DNA of 64,000 nucleotides from an uncultured Gammaproteobacteria bacterium. Lineage in GTDB: Bacteria > Cyanobacteriota > Vampirovibrionia > LMEP-6097. This document shows, one piece after another, positions 5,086 to 60,849 of the stretch. Location: NCBI GenBank assembly GCA_964517685.1, contig CAZFCF010000001.1:153458-217457 (forward strand), read 5' to 3'. The translations under genes and the position numbers were made by a program. How positions within the stretch are numbered: position 1 is the first letter of the stretch; every line of letters begins with the position of its first letter. The notes under the pieces were generated by a model. It saw only the letters and a list, made by a program, of their open reading frames with translations. It searched no databases and was not told the DNA's origin.

Positions 5086-5633
5086 TGTTTCACCTTGAAT
5101 AGTGGTATTGCTTTAACTATCAAATCATCTTTATTAATAATCAATTCAATAGTTAAATTACGAGCTTGATACTTAGTATCACTAAATATTTCTTGACCTA
5201 GAACTATGACCTTATTTTCTTTTTCATTGAGCTCTTCTAAATAGAGATCCTCAATAGTAAAACTGCTATTCAAGTTTTGTTTTTGCCTGTTTTCAAGTTC
5301 AATGGCTAGAGTCTCACTAAAGAGGTTCATGTCGGTATGCTTCTGTATAAAATTAATCGACTCTTCAGAGGTTTTAAAGAAATTTTCTAGATATATATGA
5401 GTAAATTTTTTAATTTGCTCTGGGTTAATTGTTTTACTAGGTTCTTGATTTGATTTTACGGTCTGGGATTTTTCTTCTCTGGATATTGTTGGTATTTTTT
5501 TCTTATGCACTTCTAATAACTGAATAGTAAAAAACATATTGAGTATAAGGCTTAGACAGAGAGCTAGTTGTAGCTTCTTTACTAAGCCTGGCTGCGCCAT
5601 CCAGTCAAAGAATATAGTATTCTTCTCATCCAT
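5082..5633 (-). CDS. bitopic membrane protein, T4SS-associated (VirB5/VirB8-like position)
   Basis: 183 aa, single N-proximal TM (LALCLSLILNMFFTIQLL), overlaps neighbours by 4-8 nt (operon coupling). Confidence 0.3.
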   Translation of the reverse strand: MDEKNTIFFDWMAQPGLVKKLQLALCLSLILNMFFTIQLLEVHKKKIPTISREEKSQTVKSNQEPSKTINPEQIKKFTHIYLENFFKTSEESINFIQKHTDMNLFSETLAIELENRQKQNLNSSFTIEDLYLEELNEKENKVIVLGQEIFSDTKYQARNLTIELIINKDDLIVKAIPLFKVKQ

Positions 5634-8409
5634 GAATTAAAGTCCTTAGAAGTTCTTGGCTAGTATTTAATGCTGCTAATTTACTTGTTTGTGTTTGTTT
5701 AAAATTTTCAAAGAGCTGATTCCTTTTATTTGCAAATTCTCTGGTTGAATTAGTCAGAATATTTTCAAGTGGATTAAGACTAATATTCATAAGTCCACTA
5801 GAACGAGTGCTTTTCATAAATACAGTACCCGCGTTATTCAAGAGCCCTGAATTAATGATTTCAGATTCTTTCTCTGTTAAATTACTAAATCGTGAAATTT
5901 CAAATCTATCTTTAAATTCTTTCAATTGAAAAACAAAAGAACAAGAAGAGTTCGAATGAACTTCAGCAGGTAGGTCACAAGGTTTTTGGGAGATAGTCCA
6001 AAGCCCAAGATCTAGTCCTCTACCAGCTCTGGCGAGGTGAGTAAGTAAGTCTTTTGCGTATACTGACTTATTACTGCCAAATAATTTCCATGCTTCATCA
6101 ATAATTAAATTGGTCTTAGCTTGCTTGAAGAAAACTATTTTTTTGGAAATAAAATTAACTACTAGAAATAAACTGGCTCTAATAAAGCTCTCATCACTAG
6201 TGATTTTGGAAAAAGTGAATAGAACTAAGCGATCGTTAATTTTAAGTTCTTGACCATCAGCAAGAGCAGCATAAATACCATTACTGATATAACAATATGG
6301 AGAAATGATTTCTAACCATTCTTTGCTTAATGCTGCTGAATTAGTTTCTGTATAAGCTTTCCATAGATTGTATAAATCACTAAAACGAGGTTTAGCATAT
6401 TGTGCATAGAGCTCTTTAAGGCTCTGTATCAAGAAAGCCTTCTCACCTGTCTGTAATTCTTTATCAGGACTTTTCAGTAGTTTTAGAAAATTAATTAAAT
6501 CATCGATGTGTTGATTGAGATTGTATCTTGGACATTGAGTAAATTCAAAAGGTGCAAATAAAGACTCACCTTCATCTAAGTTGATCTTGTCTATTTCTAT
6601 AATTTTGCCACCTAGATAATTAGTGAAGAAGCTCCAACCATCTTCAGTACTATCTACTATGTAAAAAAATCTATCTTGCTCGGCAAACATCCTTAATAAG
6701 AGGATTTTGGCTAAGACGGTTTTGCCAGAACCCGAATCACCAATAAAATTAAAATTTCTATTGTGAAACTCTGAGCGATTATAGTCATCTACAAAAATTA
6801 CTTTTTGTGATTTATGATCAAAGCCTGCTATGAAACCTTCTTTCGAGCCAATTTGTGATCTTATGAAGGGGAAGCAAGCTTTAGCAAAGTCTAAACAGGC
6901 AAAGTGCATTTCCTTGTCATTTAGCTTGTTATAGGCAAAGGGTAGCGAATAGTGATAGTTTGGAACCTGTTGCCTATCTAGTCCTGAAATCTTGGAATAT
7001 TTAATTGAGCTTAAAATACTATTATCGATTTTTTGTAATTCATTTAGATCTTTACAAAAAATAGTAATGAAAATTGATATATCAAAACTTATAGCTTTCT
7101 CTAAAAGTTTCTGACTGGCAAGTTCGGTTTCTTTTATGATTGCTAAAGTGCTTTGCCTGCTGAGGTTTGAGAGTTGTTTAGAGTAGATGGATTTTTGTTC
7201 TAATTTTAATCTGTCCTTTAAAGCATTGCGGCTTAGTAACTGAATGCTAATTATGGATTTACAAGAAGTGTTTTTGATGAAATCATAAACCCAAAAATCT
7301 AAGTCACCGCTTTCTGGACTGAAAACCATTCGATAGGTTTTTGTAATGGTCGGGGAATCTTTGCTTGATTTATGCTCTATATACTTTGCTCTATCAATTA
7401 GTTTAATTTCTTCATTAGTTAAGGACTGGATCCTTACGCTTCGCTCAGGATGACGATTAGGGTCGAAGTATTCTTTACCAAGCCATTTTTCTGTGAAATT
7501 TTGTAAATCTATATGCTCTAATTGTTCTGATTGAATATTATTGTTTTGGAAAAATTCTTGGATCTTTTTGATTTTCTGTTTGAGTAAATAATTTTCCTCT
7601 ATAAGTGCTTGCTGCTCTTTTTCTAAAATTGCTTCTTTGTTTTTATTAAAATATTTATTGTAGAAAGCAAACAAAGACTTAAAAATTGGGTGAATGTTGT
7701 TTCTTTGGTTTTTTTGCCTGATAATCATATAAAAATTAGTTTCTGGAATAAATTTCTCTTCGCTTGTTTTGGCTTGAAGGTAGTCACTGTATGCTTTTTG
7801 GTAGTTTTGATAGTTAAGACAATCGCTCTGGATATCATTTAGTATTGGCATTTGGTAAGAATCTATTTCAATAAAGAGCTGAATGATATCGCCATAGTTT
7901 TTTTCTGAAAAGAAATATGATTTGATATTTTTGATTTCAGAAACAGTAGCGAGAATATTTTCCCAATTGCGTAAGAAGTTTTCTATTTCAGTTTTATCCA
8001 GGCGATTTAAAACAATTCCACTTTGGATTTTTATAATTGCTATTTGATCGTTGTCCTTGCTAAGTAAAAAATCATCATAGAGAGATTTAATATCAATTAG
8101 TTCTTTAGTGGAGATATAGCCTTGAGAGTTTTTGCCTCTAGTAAAATGATGATTTGCAAATGGGTGAAATATAAATGAGCTATAGAATCCTTTGATTTCT
8201 GGTTCCTGACTGCTTTTGATAACTAAGCTAAGAATGATCATATAGAGCGTAGCTAGGAAAATTAGTAATGGGCTATTTAGGGCTAATCTTAAGGATAGGG
8301 CGATATAGAGGAGTGATATGGAAAGAAGAAGGATCTTCAATATTGCCCAAAGATTGAGCCCTAGAAATAGCTCAGGCTCTTTTTTAATATGTCGGAAGGT
8401 TTGGATCAT
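5626..8409 (-). CDS. virB4: type IV secretion ATPase, VirB3-VirB4 fusion type (CagE/TraG-like)
   Basis: N-terminal two TM helices (VirB3-like), Walker A GDSGSGKT, Walker B/VirB4 signature IIDEAWKLF, C-terminal WTISQKP (VirB4 motif). Confidence 0.75.
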   Translation of the reverse strand: MIQTFRHIKKEPELFLGLNLWAILKILLLSISLLYIALSLRLALNSPLLIFLATLYMIILSLVIKSSQEPEIKGFYSSFIFHPFANHHFTRGKNSQGYISTKELIDIKSLYDDFLLSKDNDQIAIIKIQSGIVLNRLDKTEIENFLRNWENILATVSEIKNIKSYFFSEKNYGDIIQLFIEIDSYQMPILNDIQSDCLNYQNYQKAYSDYLQAKTSEEKFIPETNFYMIIRQKNQRNNIHPIFKSLFAFYNKYFNKNKEAILEKEQQALIEENYLLKQKIKKIQEFFQNNNIQSEQLEHIDLQNFTEKWLGKEYFDPNRHPERSVRIQSLTNEEIKLIDRAKYIEHKSSKDSPTITKTYRMVFSPESGDLDFWVYDFIKNTSCKSIISIQLLSRNALKDRLKLEQKSIYSKQLSNLSRQSTLAIIKETELASQKLLEKAISFDISIFITIFCKDLNELQKIDNSILSSIKYSKISGLDRQQVPNYHYSLPFAYNKLNDKEMHFACLDFAKACFPFIRSQIGSKEGFIAGFDHKSQKVIFVDDYNRSEFHNRNFNFIGDSGSGKTVLAKILLLRMFAEQDRFFYIVDSTEDGWSFFTNYLGGKIIEIDKINLDEGESLFAPFEFTQCPRYNLNQHIDDLINFLKLLKSPDKELQTGEKAFLIQSLKELYAQYAKPRFSDLYNLWKAYTETNSAALSKEWLEIISPYCYISNGIYAALADGQELKINDRLVLFTFSKITSDESFIRASLFLVVNFISKKIVFFKQAKTNLIIDEAWKLFGSNKSVYAKDLLTHLARAGRGLDLGLWTISQKPCDLPAEVHSNSSCSFVFQLKEFKDRFEISRFSNLTEKESEIINSGLLNNAGTVFMKSTRSSGLMNISLNPLENILTNSTREFANKRNQLFENFKQTQTSKLAALNTSQELLRTLIHG

Positions 8410-9514: not shown

Positions 9515-10648
9515 TTACGCTTTAGCTTCTTTATTCAAAAACAAATCCAAAATAGTAAAACGATTTTTACGTGTTTGTGGTGCTAGTTCAATAATTTTTT
9601 TGAGCTCAGTTGCATCTATGCCTATATCTGCAAACTTAGTGGGGAAGCCTAGTTCACTAAGTAGCTTGAATAGAATTGAGTTGTACTCAAGCTTTTCAAA
9701 ATCAACTTTATCTAAACTTAAATCAAAATCATGTGCTTGAGAAAAAATACTTTTGATCAAATCATAGCCTCTGAGACTTTCTAGAAAAAGTGTTGCCACT
9801 AAAACTTGAATGCCGTGTGATGCCTTCTTGCCATGTCCATAAATTTCATCGATGGCATGAGAGATCATGTGTTCGGCTCCAGAACAAGGTCTTGAGTTGC
9901 CACTTATACTCATAGCGATTCCTGAAACTGCAAGTGCTTCAATTAATGATCTAAGAAAAAATTCTTCATGAATAAAATCTTCAGACCAATTTGCTTTTTG
10001 ATTTTTAAGTTTAACTTGTGTTTCCAAAATTGATATAACCGTCATGGCAGACTGTTTTGAGAGCATTGCAGCAAAGCTATCAATCTCTTCACCTTTGTAT
10101 TTATTTGCAAGTTTCCAATCTTCTATTGCAGATAAATTAGCAATCAAATCACCGACACCAGATTGAATTTGTGCAGTGCTGGCATCTTTGATAATGAATA
10201 AAGGTACTAGCAAAGCATAGGGCATCACTGCTCCGTAGCTTTTGCCATTTAAGACTGCTACAGGTGAGCAGATACCATCATGTGAAATTAAAGTCGGTAC
10301 GCTGATAAATTTTGAATTAGTTTTAGCTGCTAAATATTTTACTTGATCGAGTACCTTGCCGCCACCAACTGCTAAAAGCCAATTGTTATCGAGCTTCTGG
10401 CTTAATTCACTTTCGTGCAGTAGAGCTTGCTCGTCGATTATTTGATAATTTATTTTGCAATTTTTAATCTGCGTAGAAGTCTCTAAATCTTTTGCTAGTT
10501 GATTAGCAAGAATAAAGCTTGCATAAGTGCCTGCGAAAATATAAAGTTTAGTAATTGCATTCTCTGTGATTAAATCTTCAATCACAGTTAACAAAGCAGC
10601 ATAGTCATCTGCAATTTTTAGTTCTTTTGGTATTGTAATTTGACGCAT
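9515..10648 (-). CDS. sn-glycerol-1-phosphate dehydrogenase / glycerol dehydrogenase-like Fe-ADH (EgsA/AraM family)
   Basis: AVGGGKVLDQVKYLAAK (GGGxxxDxxK NAD motif), SVPTLISHDGICSP (metal/substrate motif as in G1PDH TASNDGIASP). Confidence 0.6.
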   Translation of the reverse strand: MRQITIPKELKIADDYAALLTVIEDLITENAITKLYIFAGTYASFILANQLAKDLETSTQIKNCKINYQIIDEQALLHESELSQKLDNNWLLAVGGGKVLDQVKYLAAKTNSKFISVPTLISHDGICSPVAVLNGKSYGAVMPYALLVPLFIIKDASTAQIQSGVGDLIANLSAIEDWKLANKYKGEEIDSFAAMLSKQSAMTVISILETQVKLKNQKANWSEDFIHEEFFLRSLIEALAVSGIAMSISGNSRPCSGAEHMISHAIDEIYGHGKKASHGIQVLVATLFLESLRGYDLIKSIFSQAHDFDLSLDKVDFEKLEYNSILFKLLSELGFPTKFADIGIDATELKKIIELAPQTRKNRFTILDLFLNKEAKA

Positions 10649-11406
10649 TCTAAATCTTTTGCTTTTTGGTAATCTTCTTTAGTATCAATTTCAGTCCAAC
10701 CAAAACCTTCTGTAGAAACTGCTTTTAGTTTAAGCTCGCTTGTAATTCTATCAAGAGCATCTTCGTAATATTTATCATAGATACCATTAGCTATCATATT
10801 TTCAAGAGAAGCTTTGAACTTGGAAGCATCATTGTTACTAAGTCTTAAAATCCCAATGTACTCACCAAAAGATTTTTGATTATCAAGTTGTTTGTGAATT
10901 CGTATAATGTTTTTTTGTTCGTTGAGTAAAACTTTCATATCTTCGTCAACCAATGCCTCACTATTATCCACGATCATAAAGCTCTCTTTATTTGCCTTTA
11001 GAGCATCGACACTAATTGCTAGAATGCGCTCGTCATAGACAATATCAGAATTAAATATCAAAGTATTTTCATCTATAAGATCTCGAATTAAATAAGCTGT
11101 GTAAATATTGTTTCTATCTTTATAGTAGTCATTAAAGATTGAACGTATCTGCAAAGGTTTATAGTAATCTGGATTGCCACGCCCGCCTGCTCCTCGCAAT
11201 GACGATTTTTTAATGACGGCAGCTATCTCATCTGCCGCATGTCCGGTGACAATGATGATCTCTGTAAAATCATATTGACTCATTAACTTGAGATTTCTTT
11301 CAAGAATAGTTTCAGATTCATTTATAGGTAAACAGCACTTTGGTAAATCTTTTGTAAGATCACCTAACCTAGTTGCCATGCCTGCTGCAAAGATAATTCC
11401 GCGCAT
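10618..11406 (-). CDS. LicC-family cytidylyltransferase (CTP:phospho-alcohol/phosphonate cytidylyltransferase-like)
   Basis: MRGIIFAAGMATRLG (GxGTRL), IRSIFNDYYKDRNNIYTAYLIRDLI closely parallels S. pneumoniae LicC VRLVFNDKYADYNNFYSLYLV; overlaps G1PDH-like gene by 31 nt; contains in-frame repeat insertion. Confidence 0.65.
   Translation of the reverse strand: MRGIIFAAGMATRLGDLTKDLPKCCLPINESETILERNLKLMSQYDFTEIIIVTGHAADEIAAVIKKSSLRGAGGRGNPDYYKPLQIRSIFNDYYKDRNNIYTAYLIRDLIDENTLIFNSDIVYDERILAISVDALKANKESFMIVDNSEALVDEDMKVLLNEQKNIIRIHKQLDNQKSFGEYIGILRLSNNDASKFKASLENMIANGIYDKYYEDALDRITSELKLKAVSTEGFGWTEIDTKEDYQKAKDLECVKLQYQKN
11171..11203. repeat. palindromic repeat unit (GGATTGCCACG..CTCCTCGCAATGAC) inserted in-frame in LicC-like CDS
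   Basis: encodes KKSSLRGAGGRGNP on minus strand, a segment absent from LicC homologues. Confidence 0.75.
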
Positions 11407-14160: not shown

Positions 14161-14409
14161 ATAACTTTATTTTAGCCTTTATTTCAATAAGTCTTAGAAG
14201 TGTAATGTGATATCCATATGGATTCAACTTCATTCCGCTTAGAGCAAATCTAGCTCGGTTTGAATTACGCTTCGCGACCGAAAGATTTTACTGTAAAAAT
14301 TAAATTCAAAAACTTCGCACCTTCGCTGATTTGCTTACTAAGCTTCACTTGTTTCATCTCATATTCCTATCAAAATTACACTTCATAAGACTTATTGAAT
14401 AAAGTTATA
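14161..14409. mobile_element. MITE-like structured element copy 1 (~167-bp conserved core within a 36-46-bp inverted repeat)
   Basis: core 14207-14373 ~80% identical to core at 19580-19746; flanks ...gtcttagaagtgtaat / attacacttcataagac... are inverted repeats unique to this copy. Confidence 0.7.
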
Positions 14410-14523: not shown

Positions 14524-14600
14524 TGGTAGCTGAGGGCAGATTTGAACTGCCGACCTGTGGGTTATGAATCCACCGCTCTCACCAACTGAGCTACTCAGCC
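14524..14600 (-). tRNA. tRNA with CAU anticodon (elongator Met or Ile2/lysidine)
   Basis: 77 nt: GGCTGAG-TA-GCTC-AGTTGGTGA-GAGC..GTGGA-TTCATAA-CCCAC..GGCAG-TTCAAAT-CTGCC-CTCAGCT-A-CCA; CCA encoded. Confidence 0.85.
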
Positions 14601-18795: not shown

Positions 18796-19553
18796 GTTCA
18801 AAATTTTTTATCGCAATATTTTTGTTTTTGAATATAGCAGCAGTAGAAGCGGAAACTTTTAAAATTTCTGTAGTTGGTTCTGAGATTAAAAACCTTACAG
18901 CAATTGAACTTAAGCTTGATATTGATCCCGCTGAATCATTTGTTCTTGAAGAGCAGCTTGAAGTTTTTGATTGGGTAAAGAATCCACAAGGTGAACTTGA
19001 AAGACAATCAGCGCAAGCAAGGGTGCTTTATAAAGTTGCTGACCCTGTACACAATTCAATAAGAGTATTTTTCTTTTATCCCAATACTGTTCATCGTTTG
19101 GAAATAGATGGATCGATACTTAGAAGTAACTATAGTGGTGTAGCTTCTATAAAGATCAAAGAAATTAATTACATTTCTGACTTTTCTCTAACTGTTAATC
19201 CAGCTAAATTAAATGCTACTTTTGAATTGACTTCTAGTGAAGAGTCCCTGCCTTATAAAGGAATTTCTAAAGCTGAAATTCTTGGACCTAAGGAAAGAAT
19301 TTTCAATGAAAATATTTTTGTTTCAATTGGCAATATTGAAACTTATGGTTTTAAAATCGATGAGAAAATCAATAAACTTAGAATCAATGGTGTTGAAGCA
19401 AAGTTAATTGACAATACTATTATTGCGGCAAGATTGAAACTCAATATTAATGAGGTTTTGGAGTCATTGCCAATAGTTCTGGAAATTGAAGTTGATAATC
19501 AGACGGTGACTAAAGAAGTCGGAGTTATACACTTCTTTGAAAATTTAAATTAA
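18777..19553 (+). CDS. secreted hypothetical protein
   Basis: signal peptide FFIAIFLFLNIAAVEA; overlaps lpxC by 19 nt; stop codon lies in left arm of MITE copy 2. Confidence 0.5.
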   Translation: MHCQRISSKFFIAIFLFLNIAAVEAETFKISVVGSEIKNLTAIELKLDIDPAESFVLEEQLEVFDWVKNPQGELERQSAQARVLYKVADPVHNSIRVFFFYPNTVHRLEIDGSILRSNYSGVASIKIKEINYISDFSLTVNPAKLNATFELTSSEESLPYKGISKAEILGPKERIFNENIFVSIGNIETYGFKIDEKINKLRINGVEAKLIDNTIIAARLKLNINEVLESLPIVLEIEVDNQTVTKEVGVIHFFENLN

Positions 19554-19773
19554 CCGTAAATAGGCGGTAGAGTTTAATGTGATATTTCATATGGACTCGA
19601 CTACATTTGCTTGGAGCAAATTAAGCTCGTCTTGAAATACGCTTCGCGACCGAAAAATATTCTTAAATGCTTTAAATTTGCGAACTTCGCGACTCGCAAA
19701 TTTGCTTACCAAGCTCATTTACCTCATCTCATATTTATATCAAAATTAAACTCTACCGCCTATTTACGGTTAA
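19551..19773. mobile_element. MITE-like structured element copy 2 (same core, different 29-bp perfect inverted-repeat flanks)
   Basis: ttaaccgtaaataggcggtagagtttaat ... attaaactctaccgcctatttacggttaa flanking core homologous to 14207-14373; lies between convergent gene ends. Confidence 0.7.
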
Positions 19774-19800
19774 AGAATAAATATATATTGAAATAATGAA

Positions 19801-20829
19801 TTAAGCTGCTACTGGTAGCTTAGATCCCACTTGAACTGCAAGATCACAAAGTCTGTTTGAATAACCGTACTCATTGTCGTACCAAGAAACTACTTTCGCT
19901 TGGTTCTCACCAAGAGTCATAGTCATGCTTGCATCAATGATTGATGAGTGTGCATCGCCAGTGAAGTCGATTGATACAACTGCATCTTCAGTGTAGTCAA
20001 GGATACCTTTGAGTTTGCCTTGAGATGCTTCTTTAAGAGCAGCATTGATAGCTTCTTTAGTTACTTTGTTTTTGAAAGTGAATACTACGTCAACAACAGA
20101 AACGTTAGGAGTTGGTACGCGCATTGCATAACCATTAAGTTTGCCATTTAAATGAGGTAATACTAAACCGATAGCTTTAGCAGCACCAGTAGTAGTAGGA
20201 ATCATAGATAGAGCTGCAGCTCTTGATCTTCTTGGATCGCTGTGAGCGTTGTCAAGAAGTCTTTGGTCTGAAGTGTAAGAGTGAATAGTAGTCATGAAAC
20301 CAGTTTCAACTCCGAACTTATCATCCAGAACTTTAGTTAAAGGAGCTAAGCAGTTAGTAGTGCAGCTCGCGTTAGAAATGATGTGGTGCTTAGCTGGATC
20401 ATAGCTTTCACAGTTAACACCTTTAACGATAGTAATATCTTCGTTTGAAGCAGGCGCAGAAATAAGAACTTTCTTAGCACCAGCAGTGATGTGAGCTTTA
20501 GCTTTGTTTGCATCAGTGAATACACCTGAGCACTCAAGAACTATATCTACTCCAAGTTTGTCCCAGCCAATGTTTGCAGGATCTTTCTCTTTTAAAAATG
20601 GTGTCTTTTTGCCATCAATAGTGATTGAATCAGCGCTAGATTCAACAGTACCTTTGTAGCGACCTAGAATACTATCGTATTTAATTAGGTGAGCTGAAAT
20701 TACTGGATCAGAAACAGGGTCGTTAATTGCAACTACTTCTAGAGTGTTTGCGAAGTTCTCATTTAGTGTTCTGAAAACGTTTCTACCAATTCTACCGAAA
20801 CCATTAATACCAACTTTAATCTTAGACAT
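19801..20829 (-). CDS. gap: glyceraldehyde-3-phosphate dehydrogenase
   Basis: INGFGRIGRNVFR Rossmann motif, ASCTTNCLAP active-site Cys. Confidence 0.92.
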   Translation of the reverse strand: MSKIKVGINGFGRIGRNVFRTLNENFANTLEVVAINDPVSDPVISAHLIKYDSILGRYKGTVESSADSITIDGKKTPFLKEKDPANIGWDKLGVDIVLECSGVFTDANKAKAHITAGAKKVLISAPASNEDITIVKGVNCESYDPAKHHIISNASCTTNCLAPLTKVLDDKFGVETGFMTTIHSYTSDQRLLDNAHSDPRRSRAAALSMIPTTTGAAKAIGLVLPHLNGKLNGYAMRVPTPNVSVVDVVFTFKNKVTKEAINAALKEASQGKLKGILDYTEDAVVSIDFTGDAHSSIIDASMTMTLGENQAKVVSWYDNEYGYSNRLCDLAVQVGSKLPVAA

Positions 20830-20904
20830 GAGGCTGATTATAACAATATTAGTTTCTTATTAGAAGCTGGAAAATTATTCTTATCATATTTTTTTAAGTA
20901 TTTT

Positions 20905-22059
20905 GTGTCATTGCGAGCCATCGAAGATGGCGTGGCAATCCAGTTAGCAAGTAGATTCTGGCAATCTGGATCGCCACAGCTGCTACGCAGCTTCGCGATG
21001 ACGGCGTTTGTTCTGTTAATATGGAATCTTATGACCCCTTCTGGTCTAAAAACCTGGTTACCATCTGATGTTCGCAAGCAAGAATATCTTAGTAGCACGC
21101 TGGTTAATTTATATGAGAGTTTTGGTTATGAACCCATAGTTATTCCTACTATTGTGGATTTATCCGTTGTTGAAAAAGCTAACTCTAAATTTAGTGCCGA
21201 TGTTTTTAAACTTCTCGATAGAGACGGTAAAACCCTTGCACTGCGAACTGAATTAACTCAACCTATCGCGAAGACCATAGCTCTACGTTCTGATGAAATT
21301 AAATTCCCAATTAAACTTTATTACAATTCAAATGTATTTAGATATAAAGGTATCGCTACTGATGATTCACGGGAGATTCAGCAAGTAGGTATTGAATACT
21401 TTGGTTCCAAAGAAAATCAAAATTTTTCCGATCATGAAGTTATTCACTTATTAATAGAATCAGCTCTAAAATTAGGTTTGAAAGATTTCAAAATCACTAT
21501 CACTCATGCTGCAATTTGGAAAAGAGTTTTTGAGTTATGCGATCAAGAATCTTTGGGGCTAGGCTCTAAAGCTTATAACTTCCTCTTGGACGGTGATCTA
21601 GTTGCATTTAGAAAACTTGCTGAAAAAAATCCCCTATTGAAATTAATTCTAGAATCGGATGATATTAGTAAATTTGAAGCTGAATTGAAACTTGATTTAT
21701 CTCTCTTAAAGTCGCTTCTAGAGAATAATCCAGAGTATTTAAGTTTTGATCCTCTGCAATGTCCTGATCTAAATCTTTATACTGGAATTCATTTTAGTCT
21801 TTACTGTGCTGGTGAAGGCAAGCTCATTGCTATGGGTGGTAGATATGATAATTTGTGTAAATCTTTTGGAGCGGATTTACCGGCAATAGGTTTTGCCTTC
21901 TACGTTCCAAGATTGCTGAAAATTTTACTTGAAAGAAATTTATTAGAAGAAAGTTCTGTGAAATTGAGTGTGCTAAAGCCAAGCGCTACTTGGAAAGAAA
22001 CTTTAAATGAAATTAGAAAACTTATACACACAAGGAATAGAGTCTTTCTTAAAGACTAA
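20905..22059 (+). CDS. hisZ: ATP phosphoribosyltransferase regulatory subunit (HisRS paralogue)
   Basis: class-II aaRS-like core without anticodon-binding domain, directly upstream of short-form hisG; real start likely ATG ~21034 (MTPSGLKTWLPSDVRKQEY). Confidence 0.75.
   Translation: MSLRAIEDGVAIQLASRFWQSGSPQLLRSFAMTAFVLLIWNLMTPSGLKTWLPSDVRKQEYLSSTLVNLYESFGYEPIVIPTIVDLSVVEKANSKFSADVFKLLDRDGKTLALRTELTQPIAKTIALRSDEIKFPIKLYYNSNVFRYKGIATDDSREIQQVGIEYFGSKENQNFSDHEVIHLLIESALKLGLKDFKITITHAAIWKRVFELCDQESLGLGSKAYNFLLDGDLVAFRKLAEKNPLLKLILESDDISKFEAELKLDLSLLKSLLENNPEYLSFDPLQCPDLNLYTGIHFSLYCAGEGKLIAMGGRYDNLCKSFGADLPAIGFAFYVPRLLKILLERNLLEESSVKLSVLKPSATWKETLNEIRKLIHTRNRVFLKD
20907..21003. repeat. palindromic repeat (GTCATTGCGAG..CGTGGCAATCC + degenerate inverted half ..CGCGATGAC)
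   Basis: creates the spurious N-terminal extension MSLRAIEDGVAIQ of hisZ ORF. Confidence 0.8.
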
Positions 22060-31894: not shown

Positions 31895-32911
31895 ATGACA
31901 TACCACTTCAAACCTTATCATCCAATAGAAAATAGCTCGCGCGAAGACTATCTGCAAGAGCTAAGAGAGAATCAGCTTGACCAAGGAATTTTTGTAGTTC
32001 AAGAAAAAGTTCATGGTGGCAATTTAGTTTTTATTACTGATGGCAAAGAAATTCGCTGCGCGAAGAGAACAGGTTTACTGGATGATAATGAAAGGTTCTA
32101 CAACTTTCAGAAAGTAAGAGATCGCTATCGTGAAAAAATACTTGCAGCTTATAAGCGAGTTAAAGAGTTATATCCAGAGATGGATGAGTTATATATTTTC
32201 GGTGAAATCTTTGGTGGACAGTATCCACATCCCCAAGTGCCTAAAGTGGAGTCAGCGATTAAGTTACAACAAGGTGTATTTTATTCTCCTGATAATGATT
32301 TTTATGCATTTGATTTGCGAGTCTATAACAAAAGCTATTTGGATTTGGATCTCTCGACAAAGATTTTTGCAGAGCTGGGATTTATTCATGCTGAAATTCT
32401 TTTTCAAGGTTCGCTTGAAGAGTGCCTGGCTTATCCAAATGAATTTGAATCTAAGATTCCTGAGTATTTGGGTTTACCTTTAATCCCAGGCAATATTGCT
32501 GAAGGCGTAGTCATTAAGCCGCTTAGCGCGAAGTTTCTGCCAAGTAAAGAGAGGGTCATACTCAAGAATAAAAATCCAAAGTACGAAGAGAAAATTATCA
32601 AGAAACATAAAATTAAAAAACCTAGACCGAAGATATCGGATGCTGTAACTGATCTACGCCAAGAAACTTTGGCATATATCAATGAAAATCGTTTGAAATC
32701 TGTAACGAGCAAAATTGCTGAAGTTAATTTATCAGAGATCAAAAATGACCCTAAGCAAATTGGAAAATTCTTAGGACCCTTTGCGCAAGATGTTTTACAG
32801 GATTTCCTTAAAGACTTTGGGACTGAGTTTGAAGCTTTAGAAAAGGCTGATCAAAAACTTATTAAGCAGTTTGTTTCAGATGAGTGTATGAAGTTGTTGC
32901 GGAGAGTTTAG
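31895..32911 (+). CDS. ATP-dependent RNA ligase, T4 Rnl2 family (full length incl. C-terminal domain)
   Basis: EKVHGGNLVFI..IRCAKRTG (motif I; T4 Rnl2 EKIHGTNFSLI..VTCAKRTG), YIFGEIFGG (III), FYAFDL, AEGVVIKP (IV), VILKNKNPKY (V). Confidence 0.85.
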   Translation: MTYHFKPYHPIENSSREDYLQELRENQLDQGIFVVQEKVHGGNLVFITDGKEIRCAKRTGLLDDNERFYNFQKVRDRYREKILAAYKRVKELYPEMDELYIFGEIFGGQYPHPQVPKVESAIKLQQGVFYSPDNDFYAFDLRVYNKSYLDLDLSTKIFAELGFIHAEILFQGSLEECLAYPNEFESKIPEYLGLPLIPGNIAEGVVIKPLSAKFLPSKERVILKNKNPKYEEKIIKKHKIKKPRPKISDAVTDLRQETLAYINENRLKSVTSKIAEVNLSEIKNDPKQIGKFLGPFAQDVLQDFLKDFGTEFEALEKADQKLIKQFVSDECMKLLRRV

Positions 32912-33127: not shown

Positions 33128-33505
33128 TTGATGAAGCCAGCTTCACACAAAAGCAAATTAGAGCTAGAGTCATTCTTGACTAATGTGATATCCAAAATTG
33201 CACAAGATTTTATGCTTGATGAAGTTTTACTGTATGGCTCATATGCCAAAGGTACGGCTAATGCTGATAGTGATATTGATTTAGCTATCATCTCTCCTCA
33301 ATTAACTAAGAAAAGTATTTATGCTAATAATAGATTTATTAAAACGCAAATTAAGCTCTATGAGCCTGGTCTGCAGCTTACATCTTTTCCTTCTGAGGTT
33401 TTCTATAATGAAACCTTTGTTGATCCTGGTTTCATACAGGAAATTAAACGCACTGGTAAACGAGTTTATAGTAAGGACAATGGTTTGGATTTGAGCTTGT
33501 TGTAA
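33128..33505 (+). CDS. minimal nucleotidyltransferase (Pol-beta superfamily, MNT-like)
   Basis: LYGSYAKGTANADSDIDLAI (GS..D.D NTase motif). Confidence 0.65.
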   Translation: MMKPASHKSKLELESFLTNVISKIAQDFMLDEVLLYGSYAKGTANADSDIDLAIISPQLTKKSIYANNRFIKTQIKLYEPGLQLTSFPSEVFYNETFVDPGFIQEIKRTGKRVYSKDNGLDLSLL

Positions 33506-50950: not shown

Positions 50951-52057
50951 TTACGCCGCTAAAATATCCATAGCTTTCTTCTCAAGTACAGCTCTAGGTG
51001 TTTCTATGCTATTGCCTCTGATGATTTGAACCAAAGCTTCTTTGAATAAGCTATTATTGCCGACTTTACTCATTTGATCTTTAATTGCATGAACATTGAT
51101 TCCAAGTTGTTCAAGTTCAGTAACAATTTTATCGATTGGTATATCTGTAGCTAAATCTTGGAGTACCTGTAACATAGTTGTCGAGCTATCTACAACCTTG
51201 CCGAAACTGCTAGCAATTTTTTGAGCTGGAGTTTCTGAAGATCTTTTTTGAGCTTCAGCTAAAGCTATTTGCCTTCTTTCCGCAGCTTGCTCTTCATAAG
51301 CCTTTTCTTCACTTGCAGCTATTTCATTGCGATGTTTTTCATATTGTTTTTGTTGATAAACTTTCTCTTGATACATTTTTTCTATATAACGTTTTTCCTC
51401 AAGCTTAGCTAGGTAAGCTTCTTTTTTTGCTTTGCAAGAAGATGAACTGCCAAATAAATAGCGATATGTGTTTGAAAAGAAGTTGTAGATTGGCTTGAAA
51501 AAATAATTATTAATACCAGAAATAGTTTCACTAAAATTAGAAAACACTTTAGTCACACTCGGATGAGTTACCAGCTCAGTAAATGCTGTCATCGGACTAA
51601 CTACGGCTTTTGCTCCCCATGCCATGCCTTGAGCAAGCCAGTTTGTTGCAGTCTTAATACCTGCTTCTATATTTGATTTGACGTCATTGCGAGCCATTGA
51701 AGATGGCGTGGCAATCCCTTCCTTAGATTCGGCTTTATCAATTTCAGTTGTCTCTTTGTTTGTGCCTAATAGTGCCGCTGCACCTTTAGCGACATCATCG
51801 ATACTAAAACCTGTTGTTGCTTTAAGTACATCGCTTATAGTGGGAGTTGCTGTTGTGGTTTTTTGTTCACTAACAGTTTCAGTTTTAGTTGAATTAGTAA
51901 AACTATCTTTTGGTTCTTCAACCTTTACTTCTACAGGAGGATCTGTTAATTCTGTAGTTTCAGTTGACTGCGCAGATAAAGCATTGGCCGCCTCAACTAC
52001 CCTAGTAGCGATACTTGGACCTTTAAGAATTATTTGGCTTAATAAATCTAAACTCAT
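50951..52057 (-). CDS. hypothetical protein (T/E-rich N-half, coiled-coil C-half) with repeat insertion
   Basis: 368 aa; IATPSSMARNDVK is encoded by repeat at 51684-51717. Confidence 0.45.
   Translation of the reverse strand: MSLDLLSQIILKGPSIATRVVEAANALSAQSTETTELTDPPVEVKVEEPKDSFTNSTKTETVSEQKTTTATPTISDVLKATTGFSIDDVAKGAAALLGTNKETTEIDKAESKEGIATPSSMARNDVKSNIEAGIKTATNWLAQGMAWGAKAVVSPMTAFTELVTHPSVTKVFSNFSETISGINNYFFKPIYNFFSNTYRYLFGSSSSCKAKKEAYLAKLEEKRYIEKMYQEKVYQQKQYEKHRNEIAASEEKAYEEQAAERRQIALAEAQKRSSETPAQKIASSFGKVVDSSTTMLQVLQDLATDIPIDKIVTELEQLGINVHAIKDQMSKVGNNSLFKEALVQIIRGNSIETPRAVLEKKAMDILAA
51684..51717. repeat. single repeat unit GTCATTGCGAGCCATTGAAGATGGCGTGGCAATCC in CDS
   Basis: near-identical to unit at 20907-20941. 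Confidence 0.85.
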
Positions 52058-55178: not shown

Positions 55179-57824
55179 GTGTCTTTTTTAGAACAATTAT
55201 CAAGATTTTCTATTTTAACGCGACCCACTTCAAAATTAGGCAAAGTTTTAAAAGAAGTTCATCCTTATTCATCATCTGATAAAAATAGCTACGATGAGAT
55301 TTTAAGAAGATTAGGTCCTGTATTTGATAGTTTAGACAAACTTTTTCAAAGGACTAGGAATGGATATGATGACAAAGAAATTATTGAATTATCAGCTAAA
55401 TATACATTTTTAAAAGAAAAATTAAATACGAAGAAAACACCTTTACCAGAGAAAAACAAATATCTTCTAGAATTCAAAAACCTGATTCATGGAACTAATA
55501 TATTGAATCAATTCTATGATTTACTTCAATCTGAAAAAGTACAAGCATTTAATATTAATCGACAACGTCATCCTACAATTCAACTCTTTTTTGATGGATT
55601 AAACTTTAAAGGAAAAAATTTACAGAATATTGTTTTTAGGAATGCAAAAATTATAGATTCTAATCTTTGTGAAATTGATTTAACAGATTCAGATTGTATT
55701 GAAACTGTATTTTCAAAATCAGCTCTATATAAATTAAATTTTACTGAATCTCAATTAAATTCAGCTACCTTTACGAAAGTAAATGGTTCCAATATTAACT
55801 TCACCGATTCAAATTTACCTAAAGCTAAATTTGAAAATTGTGAACTTTTTAAAGCTAATTTTTGTGGAGCAAATCTTAGTAATGTTGAAATAAAAGATTC
55901 TTCGCTTTATGAAGCAAACTTTAGTAAGGCAGACCTGAGTCAAGCTCAAATAAATAAATTAAAATCTCATAATTCAAATTTTGAAAGAGCAATTTTCAAG
56001 AATACCAATCTCTCTAACTCTTTTTTATTTGATGCAAATTTTAAAAATGCAGAATTAACATCAACTGAATTTAATAATGTTGATTTAACTGGTGCTGATT
56101 TTAGTGGAGCCAAACTTTTGAAAGTTAATTTCTATCACTGTAATCTCACGGGTGCAAATTTTAGGAACTGTGATCTTTACCGTATAACAAATCAACAGCT
56201 TGATCAAATTATAAATCCCCTATCTGTTCGTAATGTTAATTTTCAGGAGGGAATTAAATGGTTATTTAAAAATATTGATTCTAAAGAACTAAGTAATATT
56301 ACTACTCATAAAATAATTAGATTTTTAAATATAGACTCTAATTTAGTAAGCCGTATTGATCCAACATTGCTAAGTAAAATTAATACTATTAACCCAAAAG
56401 AATTTATTGCAAGATTATTTTTGATTTATGAAATAAATATTTTAATCGAGAGAGTTTACAGAGAAAATCATAAAACTTTGGATCAACTCTGCAGAGTTTT
56501 ATATAATTCATGTGGAAATAATCTTGATGATTTAATACTTGAAGGCAAGCTCTTAAGTAATCATCTTAGTTCAGGCAATGAAAGTATTTTAAGAGACTCT
56601 TTGGAATTGGTTTTTGATACTTTTGTTTTACCAAGATTAGAAAAGTTTTTAGATACAGCTGCAATTAAAAAGTTAAAGCAATGGCAAGTATCAAGCTTTA
56701 AAGAAAAATTAATGCCATATTTTATGATTGCAATTTCTCAAAATAGATTTTTTGATCCATCTTCTGATTATTCTAAGTTAAAAGGAGAAGTAGCTTCACT
56801 ACCAAAGAGTGCAAATTATAAAATGCCGTCATTGTTACTTAATCTATCAAGGGGCATTCATCATCCTGTTATAGCTTATGATACAGCCGTAAGACATATA
56901 CTTCCTGAAGGCTCTTGGTATCCCATTTTAATTTCTGCAAATAATCAAGTTGAAATAACTTTGCCAAATACTGATAAAAAGTATTTAGTTAGAAATTTGA
57001 TCAATTACAAAGATTTTGATTACGAAACTTTTGTATTAGGTCATTGTATCGGTCGAGGTGTATTTTACGTTAACAAAGCAAAAGAAGGAGGACATCATTA
57101 TTTTTCTATTAGAGAAGCAGAAACTGGTATACCAATATCTACGGTGGAATTTGCTCTAAATGAGCGCTTACAATTACAAAAAATGCAACATAAAGGAAAA
57201 AATAATTTGCCACCAAGTGATGCTGCCAAAAAGATATTGGAAATATTTTTACGAGGTGTTAAAGACGGTACTTATCCTCTATCTTTAAAACAAACTGGTA
57301 AAGATTCCAGTGTTGAAAAATTATCTGTTTTTGAGAATGCAGTTGGTACTTTTTGTGATGATGATACTGAAGTCACAAAGAATCGTAGAATATTTGATAC
57401 AACTAATGTACACTCAGTTCAAGTAAGAGCTTGGATTAAATTAGCGCAACCTAAAAATGGCTATTTAATAAATCGACTACAAAATGGCGAAACTTATAAA
57501 TTGAATCCTGGTATTGGTACCACTAATAATTTAGGCGAAACAATTCAACTTGGTGGCTATAGAGCTAAGCCAGAAGGTATTCCTTATGATAACTATTTTA
57601 TACCTAACTCCTGTAGAGGGGATCTTAGTTTAGAATCTATTAATCCAAGAAAAGTGAATGATAAACGTTTGAGATTTTCACAATTTTCTGGAAATGATTT
57701 GGCTGAGATTGACAAAGGTATAGAAAGATTTTTTAATACCAAAGTTACAGATCAAATGAGTTTTGATGATCTAATAAAATCTACTATTATAGAAGTTGTG
57801 CAAACAGAAGAACCTCCTCTTTAA
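55179..57824 (+). CDS. pentapeptide-repeat protein, paralogue 1 (881 aa)
   Basis: A(D/N)LxxA(N/D)F repeats over residues ~150-340; conserved N-domain and ~540-aa C-domain shared with paralogue 2; GTG start. Confidence 0.7.
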   Translation: MSFLEQLSRFSILTRPTSKLGKVLKEVHPYSSSDKNSYDEILRRLGPVFDSLDKLFQRTRNGYDDKEIIELSAKYTFLKEKLNTKKTPLPEKNKYLLEFKNLIHGTNILNQFYDLLQSEKVQAFNINRQRHPTIQLFFDGLNFKGKNLQNIVFRNAKIIDSNLCEIDLTDSDCIETVFSKSALYKLNFTESQLNSATFTKVNGSNINFTDSNLPKAKFENCELFKANFCGANLSNVEIKDSSLYEANFSKADLSQAQINKLKSHNSNFERAIFKNTNLSNSFLFDANFKNAELTSTEFNNVDLTGADFSGAKLLKVNFYHCNLTGANFRNCDLYRITNQQLDQIINPLSVRNVNFQEGIKWLFKNIDSKELSNITTHKIIRFLNIDSNLVSRIDPTLLSKINTINPKEFIARLFLIYEINILIERVYRENHKTLDQLCRVLYNSCGNNLDDLILEGKLLSNHLSSGNESILRDSLELVFDTFVLPRLEKFLDTAAIKKLKQWQVSSFKEKLMPYFMIAISQNRFFDPSSDYSKLKGEVASLPKSANYKMPSLLLNLSRGIHHPVIAYDTAVRHILPEGSWYPILISANNQVEITLPNTDKKYLVRNLINYKDFDYETFVLGHCIGRGVFYVNKAKEGGHHYFSIREAETGIPISTVEFALNERLQLQKMQHKGKNNLPPSDAAKKILEIFLRGVKDGTYPLSLKQTGKDSSVEKLSVFENAVGTFCDDDTEVTKNRRIFDTTNVHSVQVRAWIKLAQPKNGYLINRLQNGETYKLNPGIGTTNNLGETIQLGGYRAKPEGIPYDNYFIPNSCRGDLSLESINPRKVNDKRLRFSQFSGNDLAEIDKGIERFFNTKVTDQMSFDDLIKSTIIEVVQTEEPPL

Positions 57825-58059: not shown

Positions 58060-60849
58060 GTGGCGTTTTTAGAACGATTAGCTAATTTTTCTACTTTAAC
58101 TCAGCCTTCTACAAGGCTTGGAAAAATTCTTGCCGGAATTCATCCCTATTTGATACTTAAGAAAAAAAATGATTATAATGACATATTAAGAAAATTACAA
58201 CCCGTCTTTAATAGCTTGGATAGGCTTTTTCAAATAGGGCAAAGAAATTCTGATAATAAAGAGATTAGAGAATTATCATTAGAATATAGATCTTTAGGAC
58301 AACAATTACAATCTACGAAAGCAACTTTAGAACAAAAAAAGAATTATCTTTTAGAGTTCAAAAAATTAGTTTATAAAACTAATAGACTGAATCAATTTCA
58401 TGATTTACTTCAATCTGAGAATGTAAGAGTATTTAACGCTAACAGACAACTATATCCTACAATTCAAACTCTTTTTCATGGGTTAAACCTTAAAAGAAAA
58501 AATTTACAAAATATCGATTTTAGAAATACGAATATTGCGCAATCAAGTCTTTCTGAAATTGATTTAACAGATTCAGATTGTATAGGAATTAAATTTTCGG
58601 ATCTAGCTTTATATAAATTAAATTTCACGAATGCCCAATTAGATTCAGCTAGCTTTACAGAAGTAAAAGGTTCTAATATTGATTTCACTAATTCTCATTT
58701 ACCTGAAGCTAAATTCGAAAATTGTAAGCTCTTAAAAGCAAATTTTCATGAAGCAGATCTCAGTGAGGTCATAATAAAGAATTCCTCTTTCCAGGAAGCA
58801 GATTTTAGTGATGCAGAACTGATATCAACTAAGTTTAGAGACGTTGATTTAACTGGTGTTGATTTTAGTGGAACCAAACTTTTTAAAGTTGATTTCTTTG
58901 GAAGCAATCTTATGGGTGCAAATTTTAAAAATGCAGAATTAATGTCAACTGAGTTTGGAAGCGTTGATTTAACTGGTGCTGACTTTAAAGGAGCCAAGCT
59001 TTCTAACGCTGATTTTGATAGCAGCAATCTTATGGGTGCAGATTTTAGTAATTGTAATCTTCGCAATGTAAAAATCACAAGTCGGCAGCTTGAGCAGATT
59101 ATAAATCCTCTCTCTGCTAATAATGTTAATTTCAGGGAAGGAATCAAATGGTTATTTAAAAATATTGACTCTAAAGAATTAAGTAATCTTAGAGTTCATC
59201 AAGTAATTAGATTTTTAGATATTGACTTTTCTTTGATAAATAGTATTGATCCATCATTGCAAAGCAAAATTAATACAATTGATCCTAGAGAATTAATTGC
59301 AAGATTATATTTGATTTCTGAGACAGACATTTTTAGCAAGCATGTTTGCGCAGAAAATCATCAAGCTCGGAATCAACTCTGTAGAGTTTTATATAATTCA
59401 TGTGGAAATAATCTTGAGGATTTAATACATGAAGGTAAATTAGTTAATAGTGATCTTCGCTCAAATAATGCCAGTGATTTTAAAGACTCTTTGAACCTAG
59501 TTTTTGATACTTTTGTTTTACCAAGATTAGAAAAGTTTTTAGATACAACTGCAACTAAGGAGTTAAAGCAATGGCAGTTATCAAAATTTAGAGAAAAACT
59601 AATTCCATATTTGGTTATTGCAATTTCTCAAAATAGATTTTTTGATCCAAGCTCTGATTATTCTAAGCTAAAGGGGAAAGTAGCTTCACTACCTAAAAAT
59701 GCAAACTATAAAATGCCATCATTATTACTCAATATATCAAAAGGTATTCACAACCCTGTTGTCGCTTATGCTACAGCAGTAAGGCATATTAGTCCTGAAG
59801 GCTCATGGCATCCTATTTTAAATTCTGTGGCTAATCAAGTTGAAATCACTTTACCTAATAGTAATAGAAGATACTTAGTTAAAAATTTGATCAATTACAA
59901 AGATTTTGATTATGAATCTTCTGCATTAGGTCATTGCATCGGTCAAGGTGTACGTTACGTTAACAAAGCAAAGGGAGGTAAATACCATTATTTTTCTATA
60001 AGAGAAGCAGAAACGGGCAAGCCAGTATCTACCGTGGAGTTTGCTTTAGGACATGATGGTAGTCCTAGGGGTCCTTTTGAAGATCGTGATATTAGAGCCA
60101 GAAATAGTACTTCAATAGACAATCATTCTGATTATTTTTTACAACAAATCCAGCATAGAGGAAAAAGAAATTCGATACCAACTGCAGATGCCAAAGAGAT
60201 CCTGAAGATATTTTTACAAGGTGTCAAAGACGGTACTTATCCTATATCCTTAAAACCAATTGGTAAAGATTCTAGTACTGAAAAATTATCTGCTTTTGAA
60301 AATACTATTGGTACTTCTTTTGATGATACCGAAGTTATAAATAATCGTAAAATGTTTGATACAACTAATGTACATTCTATTCAAGCAAGAGCTTGGATTA
60401 AATTAGCGCAACCTAAAGACAGCCATTTAGAAAATCGACTACAGGATGGTGAAATTCAAGAATTAAACCCAGGTATTGGTGTCATTGACGAGGAAACTGG
60501 CGAAACAATTCAGCTTGGTGGCTATAGAGCCAAGCCAGAAGGTATTCCTTATGATAACTATTTTATACCTAACTCCTGTAGAGGAGATCTTAGTTTAGAA
60601 TCTATTAATCCAAGAAAAGTGAATGATAAACGTTTGAGATTTTCACAATTTTCTGGAAATGATTTGGCTGAGATTGACAAAGGTATAGAAAGATTTTTTA
60701 ATACCAAAGTTACAGATCAAATGAGTTTTGATGATCTAATAAAATCTACTATAGAAACTGTGCAAAAAGAAGAACTTCCGAAAAGAGATCTTGCGCACGG
60801 AGATCTTTTGATGATGGAGTTGGCTGCAATTATTGGGGATAATCAATAA
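58060..60849 (+). CDS. pentapeptide-repeat protein, paralogue 2 (929 aa, longer repeat tract)
   Basis: ~60% identity to paralogue 1 in N-domain, near-identical in last ~100 aa; extra pentapeptide units. Confidence 0.7.
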   Translation: MAFLERLANFSTLTQPSTRLGKILAGIHPYLILKKKNDYNDILRKLQPVFNSLDRLFQIGQRNSDNKEIRELSLEYRSLGQQLQSTKATLEQKKNYLLEFKKLVYKTNRLNQFHDLLQSENVRVFNANRQLYPTIQTLFHGLNLKRKNLQNIDFRNTNIAQSSLSEIDLTDSDCIGIKFSDLALYKLNFTNAQLDSASFTEVKGSNIDFTNSHLPEAKFENCKLLKANFHEADLSEVIIKNSSFQEADFSDAELISTKFRDVDLTGVDFSGTKLFKVDFFGSNLMGANFKNAELMSTEFGSVDLTGADFKGAKLSNADFDSSNLMGADFSNCNLRNVKITSRQLEQIINPLSANNVNFREGIKWLFKNIDSKELSNLRVHQVIRFLDIDFSLINSIDPSLQSKINTIDPRELIARLYLISETDIFSKHVCAENHQARNQLCRVLYNSCGNNLEDLIHEGKLVNSDLRSNNASDFKDSLNLVFDTFVLPRLEKFLDTTATKELKQWQLSKFREKLIPYLVIAISQNRFFDPSSDYSKLKGKVASLPKNANYKMPSLLLNISKGIHNPVVAYATAVRHISPEGSWHPILNSVANQVEITLPNSNRRYLVKNLINYKDFDYESSALGHCIGQGVRYVNKAKGGKYHYFSIREAETGKPVSTVEFALGHDGSPRGPFEDRDIRARNSTSIDNHSDYFLQQIQHRGKRNSIPTADAKEILKIFLQGVKDGTYPISLKPIGKDSSTEKLSAFENTIGTSFDDTEVINNRKMFDTTNVHSIQARAWIKLAQPKDSHLENRLQDGEIQELNPGIGVIDEETGETIQLGGYRAKPEGIPYDNYFIPNSCRGDLSLESINPRKVNDKRLRFSQFSGNDLAEIDKGIERFFNTKVTDQMSFDDLIKSTIETVQKEELPKRDLAHGDLLMMELAAIIGDNQ

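Follow-up and report, generated by a model that had tools for sequence, protein, structure and literature searches.

Why does an apparently intact enzyme gene carry, within its reading frame, a copy of a short palindromic repeat that is dispersed through the surrounding DNA? The question is raised by a 64,000-nucleotide stretch of contig CAZFCF010000001.1 (hereafter the window, meaning that whole stretch), in which a gene for a nucleotidyltransferase of the LicC/PntC fold contains one copy of a repetitive extragenic palindromic (REP) element with an unpaired CGTC tag. A sequence-only reading of the window had placed a repeat unit at 11171-11203, which is the same element as the one delimited here at 11170-11204, trimmed by one base at each end. 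Our analysis indicates that this copy is very probably a neutral, tolerated in-frame insertion of a selfish CGTC-tagged REP, now decaying, in a surface loop of the LicC-fold transferase.

The repeat family and its copy in the transferase gene

The repeat family was delimited in two ways. The pattern CATTGCGAG-N8-22-GCAATC matched 14 times in the window and not once in 100 shuffles, and a covariance model (R1) recovered 25 copies at 30 bits or more in the 64 kb; both results bear out the repeat origin that had been proposed for the segment in the transferase gene. In an alignment of 24 copies, the 5′ GTCAT is invariant, the centre is variable, and the 3′ ...AATCC is conserved. In a hairpin with an outer stem of 5 bp and an inner stem of 6 bp, 87% of the alignment cells pair, with compensatory changes in eight of the 11 pairs; the observed covariation score was reached by 0 of 500 shuffles, and sliding the partners abolished the signal. 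The stem sequence of the family is ATTGCGAG...GCAAT, with the outer stem alternating among TTGC/GCAA, TCCT/AGGA, TTCT/AGAA, and TCGT/ACGA, and the stem-opening pairs 11-44 (A-U) and 12-43 (U-A) are invariant in all 24 aligned copies. The architecture thus consists of an unpaired tag, the 5-bp outer stem, a 2 × 3 internal loop, an inner stem of 2-7 bp, a loop of 3-5 nt, and a tail. Among the 25 copies, the tag is CGTC in 18, TGTC in six, and AGTC in one, and the tail, read by eye from the sequences, is CCA in 12, CCC in nine, and another sequence in four. The elements are 25-37 nt long and have a GC content of 47-63%, compared with 34% for the window; 12 of the 25 form six inverted dimers of about 80-90 nt, with tags outward and tails inward, and singlets occur as well. 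Copies of the family were also found in loci labelled Melainabacteria and Caenarcanales. Regarding other classes of element, an RNA family, an attC site, a CRISPR repeat, and a terminator were all rejected, given that there was no Rfam hit, that the copies are dispersed rather than arrayed, that they bear the tag and tail of CGTC REPs, and that they have no T-run. The Rfam search, run over the whole window at gathering thresholds, yielded no family matching the repeat, and a literature search with the literal string CATTGCGAG yielded no relevant match, only primer lists.

The transferase copy reads CGTCATTGCGAGGAGCAGGCGGGCGTGGCAATCCA on the minus strand (window 11204-11170) and scores 44.7 bits (E 4e-11) with the covariance model of the family in the 64-kb window. 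It is 35 nt long and lies in frame on the minus strand of the gene, as had been claimed from the sequence and as the translation confirmed: it codes for (S)SLRGAGGRGNP, 12 residues at positions 68/69-79 of the protein, in the context ...AAVIKKS-SLRGAGGRGNP-DYYKPLQIRSIFNDYYKDRNN, where the segment preceding SLRGAGGRGNP is HAADEIAAVIKKS. The inner stem of this copy is degenerate, and as single-stranded DNA it is without the family hairpin (minimum free energy −3.4 kcal/mol, z +0.7), whereas copies of the GAGCC...GGCGTG subtype do fold (−7.4 to −8.9 kcal/mol, z −2.1 to −2.6). No target-site duplication was seen at the transferase copy. With its inner stem lost, the copy appears now to be drifting as ordinary loop-coding sequence.

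Homologues supplied the evidence that the segment was added to the gene. The stretch from TGHA to FN(D/P) comprises 42 residues in the window protein only and 25-33 residues in the 77 homologues, with a mode of 30 (53 of 78 sequences); the window segment is longer by 12 residues than the family mode and by nine than the closest orthologues, so that the earlier estimate of an insertion of about 11 residues was about right. According to the sequence-only reading, its proposal would be refuted by homologues bearing this segment in genomes otherwise free of the repeat; the peptide SLRGAGGRGNP was present in none of the 77, and this check did not refute it. Once the REP peptide is removed, the part from DEI to IRSIFN has 14 residues, compared with 13 in typical homologues, which points to a clean addition. 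The 85-87% orthologues P0002/L003 and L009 bear no repeat at the site but an unrelated linker, EKEIEKTTEKTSNIGS, and outside this linker they show 87% nucleotide identity to the window. Among solved structures, the nearest relatives by sequence are PntC (6pd1, 1.7e-10) and LicC (1jyk, 3e-9); in both alignments, a gap opens exactly at the insert, of 17 residues in LicC and 15 in PntC, in agreement with the claim that LicC runs straight through this site.

The host protein matches the Pfam family NTP_transferase (PF00483; 39.5 bits vs. a cut-off of 21.2; 6e-10). An AlphaFold2 model built from a 23-sequence alignment reached a mean predicted local distance difference test score (pLDDT) of 91.7 and a predicted template modelling score (pTM) of 0.89. 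In this model, the insert forms a loop joining helix 58-71 to strand 86-91, and residues 71-80 are the sole internal block of low confidence (mean pLDDT about 59). The view that the enzyme has been interrupted in its conserved core therefore had to be amended: an insertion is present, but it occupies the most length-variable linker of the family, a surface loop modelled with low confidence. All 33 invariant family columns are retained in the host protein. When the host was compared with three orthologues, excluding the linker, amino acid identity was 91-93% and identity at third codon positions 72%, indicating purifying selection on the enzyme, and the host gene is still functional as far as sequence can tell. 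The identical 262-residue protein occurs on six contigs, and the three that are shown each represent a different sample, which excludes an assembly artefact.

The description of the enzyme as LicC-like likewise held in part. The top Foldseek match was LicC 1jyk (E 1e-17, template modelling score 0.77/0.87, ~21% identity), followed by PntC and IPCT. The fold of LicC, the cytidine triphosphate (CTP):phosphocholine cytidylyltransferase of S. pneumoniae, and of PntC is common to the host enzyme, and its N-terminal nucleotide-binding motif and FND-x-Y...NN-x-Y motif align with theirs. Beyond the fold, however, the transferase is part of a clade separate from LicC and always paired with a gene of the Fe-ADH_2 (glycerol-1-phosphate-dehydrogenase-like) family. 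This pairing is kept in relatives (L001 3001-4862, L004 5001-6955), with an overlap of 31 nt in both the window and L001, and the neighbour is this gene, not licA, licB, or licD. Given the ~21% identity and the conserved Fe-ADH_2 partner, the substrate is probably not phosphocholine; the two genes suggest a two-step pathway to a cytidine diphosphate (CDP)-activated polyol phosphate (CDP-glycerol-like), not to CDP-choline. Database annotations of the transferase family vary and include choline kinase, L-glutamine-phosphate cytidylyltransferase, and phosphoenolpyruvate mutase.

REP copies in related transferases and in other genes

REPs have struck the transferase family on at least five occasions, in two of its helix-to-strand loops. 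In the orthologue P0003, a REP (L001 3185-3229, 34.8 bits) gives GTCATCCTGAGTGAACGAAGTGAGCGTAAGGATCCAG in the same loop as the window insert. Compared with the window REP, it has a TCCT-type stem variant, is 37 rather than 35 nt long, has its start displaced by 14 nt in the 5′ direction, and differs in the frame read at its 5′ end. Its start coincides exactly with GCCGTCAT, the homologue of a second CGTCATT heptamer that precedes the REP in the window gene (Table 1). This heptamer may be native sequence mimicking a REP head or the remnant of an older REP; it may also be a microhomology target or a coincidence. At the second helix-to-strand loop, inverted dimers are found in P0072/L004, P0057, and the Melainabacteria locus L024 (second clade); these dimers use differing frames, and REP-free relatives of similar identity fall between their carriers. 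A comparable coincidence, in which orthologues bear different REPs at roughly one position, is described for recB of two Xanthomonas species (PMC3733652). The simplest reading of the repeated hits is frequent insertion combined with a selection filter that leaves copies in permissive loops only.

In-frame copies were identified in at least four window genes besides the transferase (Table 1), and homologues were compared for two of these four, the aldolase-like and the radical SAM genes. The radical SAM insert is absent from eight homologues, and the 65% orthologue P0214 carries a forward copy, RHCEERSDVAI, in the same loop. The 84% orthologue P0089 of the aldolase-like protein carries the complete inverted dimer, RHCEERSDEAIPLRKEIATPSSMARND, in the corresponding position, and five more distant homologues (P0090-P0094) have no copy; in the window gene, only the first half of the dimer remains, and flanking native residues have been lost. 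Searches of PDB sequences with the radical SAM and aldolase-like proteins gave no usable homologue, and a weak PDB match of the latter, aligned ungapped across the REP peptide, was not trusted. The C-terminus of the aldolase-like gene, ...SVILRSEVDKSSLRGTE with the stop included, is coded jointly by the REP at 46934-46976 and a truncated REP head (window 46900-46976); P0089 ends in SASLRGTK, and the more distant homologues end in YSSIST or YSLIRA. Another REP dimer, at 20902-21007, lies directly upstream of, or within the annotated N-terminus of, a histidyl-tRNA synthetase-like gene (20905-22059); this gene neighbours a hisG of the short form and is probably hisZ. If translation began at its mechanically assigned GTG, the REP would be read as SLRAIEDGVAI...LLRSFAMT, and the true start is therefore probably further downstream. 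Overall, only five of the 25 copies are located inside long open reading frames (ORFs), against a coding density of 90% (binomial P about 4e-16); the copies are strongly depleted from genes, and most intragenic insertions have thus evidently been removed.

These observations are gathered in the following proposal. One REP copy would have inserted into the DNA encoding the linker between helix 58-71 and strand 86-91, adding about 12 codons, and three circumstances would have allowed it to survive. The consensus element is stop-free in five of the six reading frames, and the transferase copy is read in one that is open, the SLRG...RGNP frame; the net length change preserved the reading frame of the gene; and the site would be a surface helix-to-strand connection at the sheet end that lies across from the substrate site, as the topology of this Rossmann-like alpha/beta fold implies. 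The likeliest routes of arrival would be single-strand hairpin transposition supplied in trans, or microhomology or recombination with other copies.

Table 1. Positions of the transferase gene, its partner, and the REP copies and REP-like heads discussed in the text (window coordinates)
Feature	Position	Strand	Details
Host gene, LicC/PntC-fold nucleotidyltransferase	10618..11406	-	262 aa, intact; identified by Pfam, PDB, AlphaFold2, Foldseek
Fe-ADH_2 (glycerol-1-phosphate-dehydrogenase-like) partner gene	9515..10648	-	Downstream; overlaps the transferase gene by 31 nt
Intragenic CGTC-tagged REP copy	11170..11204	-	Basis: pattern, alignment, covariance model
Parts of the transferase copy			Tag CGTC 11204-11201; outer stem ATTGC/GCAAT; degenerate inner part; tail CCA 11172-11170
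Second CGTCATT heptamer	11212..11218	-	Codons A-V-I; 14 nt upstream of the REP's own CGTCATT
In-frame copy, SLRGAGGRGNP (the copy at 11170..11204)	11166-11208	-	In the transferase gene
In-frame copy, RHPERSVRI	7423..7459	-	In 927-aa AAA_10/VirB4-like ORF 5626-8409
In-frame copy, reverse orientation, GLLRFARND	44172..44208	-	In radical SAM gene 43568-44524
In-frame copy, RHCEERSDVAI	46255..46297	+	In aldolase-like gene 46013-46960
In-frame copy, reverse orientation, GIATPSSMARND	51678..51722	+	In ParA/VirC1-like ORF 50951-52057
Inverted REP dimer, tags outward, tails inward	46934..47021	.	Supplies SSLRGTE and the stop codon of gene 46013-46960
REPs with an upstream second GTCAT head	2586, 11166, 20963, 28120, 30815, 43462, 44172, 46934, 54899		

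Comparison with known repeats and the host lineage

The short palindromic repeats of prokaryotes have been divided into GTAG- and CGTC-tagged superfamilies (Di Nocera, De Gregorio & Rocco 2013, BMC Genomics 14:522; PMC3733652). In that paper, CGTC REPs have a terminal unpaired CGTC, often replaced by TGTC or CCTC, stem pairs 1-2 that are almost invariably A-T, and a short tail near CCA; they are mostly inverted dimers, are without an associated transposase, and in some cases lie wholly within an ORF in frame, and their hosts are given as Proteobacteria, Chlorobi, Bacteroidetes, Spirochaetes, and Thermotogae (PMC3733652). The window family has in common with them the tag, the A-T/T-A start of the stem, the CCA-like tail, a length of 20-40 nt, dispersed copies, and dimers. 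Both are also mainly intergenic, with a minority of singlets or dimers in frame in ORFs, coding for about 8-30 residues. The window repeat thus matches the CGTC superfamily, and it fits none of the four described families, from which it is set apart by their text descriptions rather than by consensus sequences. In R. conorii, the in-frame REPs RPE-6 and RPE-4 are equated with CGTC-1 and CGTC-4, respectively, and the supplementary table lists VIPAKAGI, SFPRKRES, CHSRESGNP, and DSRFRRND as intragenic peptides of CGTC-1/CGTC-4 (PMC3733652). These four peptides come from a single element read in its three forward frames and in one reverse frame, and the window family yields a like set, namely VIARS..., SLRG...RGNP, RHCEERSD.AI, and G.P...ARND.

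Other repeats share part of these features. The Rickettsia element RPE-1 (Ogata et al. 2000; summarised in PMC10969869 and PMC3733652) is, like the window REP, selfish palindromic DNA lying in frame in unrelated, still functional genes of an AT-rich genome. However, RPE-1 measures about 100-150 bp and codes for 35-50 residues, whereas the window copy has 35 nt and 12 residues, is unrelated in sequence, and resides in another host lineage. GTAG REPs and REPINs, which are mobilised by REP-associated tyrosine transposases (RAYTs), resemble the window family in their hairpins, the unpaired tetranucleotide by the stem, the inverted dimers, the stem covariation, and the mostly extragenic location; their tag is GTAG, in contrast to the CGTC of the window family. 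No RAYT, IS200-like, or PF01797-type gene was found among the window ORFs scanned. Intragenic miniature inverted-repeat transposable elements, such as ERIC and Coxiella QMITE1, are also non-autonomous and occasionally fused in frame to host ORFs (PMC10969869), but they measure 70-500 bp and have terminal inverted repeats as well as the target-site duplications that the transferase copy is without (PMC10969869). In-frame insertion by such repeats is already known from Rickettsia and other bacteria, and the window case is a new example, not a new phenomenon.

The host organism appears to be Melainabacteria-like (Vampirovibrionia), not Rickettsia, judging from its predicted proteins: the best named matches of its seryl-tRNA synthetase are from Melainabacteria/Cyanobacteriota (62-72% identity), and DUF561 (Ycf23-like) and pentapeptide-repeat proteins agree with this placement, as do REP-bearing relatives.

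Several further features of the window were recorded. Two tandem paralogous genes of ~900 aa, at 55179-57824 and 58060-60849 (both +), combine pentapeptide-repeat regions with a PcfJ-like domain; their blockwise identity of 71-99% explains the direct repeats D1-D14. A perfect 29-nt inverted repeat (19550-19578/19745-19773) encloses 166 nt, and an 82-nt direct repeat, 76% identical between its copies, is located at 19609-19690, inside the inverted repeat, and at 14237-14318, near tRNA-Met (14524-14600). The interval bounded by the 29-nt repeat may be a small mobile or structured element; Rfam, searched at E up to 0.1 around 19500-19850, gave no match to it. Additionally, genes encoding a T4 Rnl2-type RNA ligase (31895-32911, +), a small Pol-beta-type nucleotidyltransferase (33128-33505, +), and an AbiEii toxin with its upstream partner ORF (44525-45908, −) are scattered among housekeeping genes, some of them flanked by REPs.

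Alternative explanations and significance

Most likely, the insert performs no function itself, and a tolerated insertion is the explanation that we favour, although several points weigh against it. The four closest orthologues are nearly equidistant (87-90% nucleotide identity), so that one ancestral insertion followed by loss or replacement is inseparable from two independent insertions. The insert would lie away from the substrate site, a position argued from the topology of the fold and not from distances, and its neutrality is presumed. Furthermore, the four CGTC families, as described in the text of their source, have a continuous stem of 8-9 bp with a loop of 4-5 nt, whereas the stem of the window family is bipartite. 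Finally, no Y1/HUH or other transposase domain was detected among the ~48 window ORFs scanned with Pfam; this agrees with the literature on CGTC REPs and leaves the routes of insertion proposed above conjectural.

Co-option of the insert, either as a Gly/Arg-rich loop mediating interaction or regulation or as an mRNA hairpin tuning the translation or stability of the transferase/Fe-ADH_2 operon, is very unlikely in our estimation. It would fit with the identity of the insert-bearing protein on every contig found to carry it (those shown representing three samples), with the repeated hits at two loops of the transferase family, and with the role as RNA elements that REPs elsewhere are thought to play (PMC3733652). 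Nevertheless, the loss of the family hairpin from the transferase copy, evident from its folding energy, makes an RNA-structure role unlikely. As for a role of the peptide, it is wholly different between carriers (SLRGAGGRGNP vs. VILSERSERKDP) and absent from most orthologues, the same peptides turn up in unrelated genes in whichever frame is open, and the copies are strongly depleted from genes. The chance that the whole observation is an artefact, i.e., a chance resemblance, an assembly chimera, or a decaying pseudogene, is negligible: the data are metagenome assemblies and a GC-rich 35-mer is conspicuous in a genome of 34% GC, but the E value of 4e-11 in the covariance model, the motif's 0 matches in shuffles, and the identical protein on six contigs, three of them shown and from three samples, all speak against it, as do the intact ORF, the kept invariant residues, the conserved 31-nt overlap with the partner gene, and the strong purifying selection.

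A more serious competitor, which we nonetheless regard as unlikely, holds that the ancestor shared by the window and P0003 lineages already carried an older REP at this site, that P0002/L009 lost it, and that in the window a second REP overwrote it or nested in it, by gene conversion or by insertion of one REP into another. The sequence GCCGTCAT (A-V-I) is common to the window and P0003, while P0002/L009 have GAAAAAGAAAT there, and the TCCT-type REP of P0003 starts exactly at the GTCAT of this sequence; in addition, the aldolase-like gene of the window lineage clearly retains just a singlet of what was a dimer in the ancestor. Second GTCAT heads are also frequent beside other copies: within 30 nt, such a head lies upstream of nine of the 25 window REPs (Table 1), compared with ~0.65 expected, and downstream of one of the 25. 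Six of the nine upstream heads are a full truncated REP head, GTCATNNNGAG, and four of these six are TCCT-type. On the other hand, A-V-I also agrees with the helix pattern native to homologues (e.g., KEAIKK, SEAITP) and may be native, the REPs of the window and P0003 differ in stem variant, length (35 vs. 37 nt), position (14 nt), and 5′ frame, and the nearly equidistant orthologues place the window, if anything, outside the other three. The upstream heads suggest either nested insertion into older REPs or head-directed integration. That REPs are still active in this Melainabacteria-like lineage, integrating beside or into sequences that resemble their own GTCAT head, appears quite improbable; the idea derives from the truncated heads upstream of nine of the 25 copies, the CGTCATT 14 nt upstream of the transferase copy, and the start of the P0003 REP at that heptamer. 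If it were true, comparing closely related genomes that have or lack copies at these loops would offer a first handle on the mobilisation of CGTC REPs, which are reported to lack a transposase of their own.

Returning to the tolerated insertion, the locus extends the in-frame colonisation of housekeeping genes by tiny palindromic repeats, as in Rickettsia, to an uncultured, AT-rich, Melainabacteria-like lineage, where the family, with its bipartite stem, forms a branch of the CGTC REP superfamily that is distinct in structure. For annotation, peptides such as SLRG..RGNP, RHCEERSD.AI, VIARS...AIS, G(L/I)...ARND, and ...LAMT in the predicted proteins of such genomes point to REP-derived loops or to wrongly called ORFs, not to conserved motifs, and they make the proteins look more novel in sequence than they are. 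For the enzyme family, the repeated hits at two helix-to-strand loops amount to a natural insertion-tolerance map of the LicC fold, and the set of close orthologues that variously have a copy, lack one, or have a different one could be of use in explaining how CGTC REPs move.

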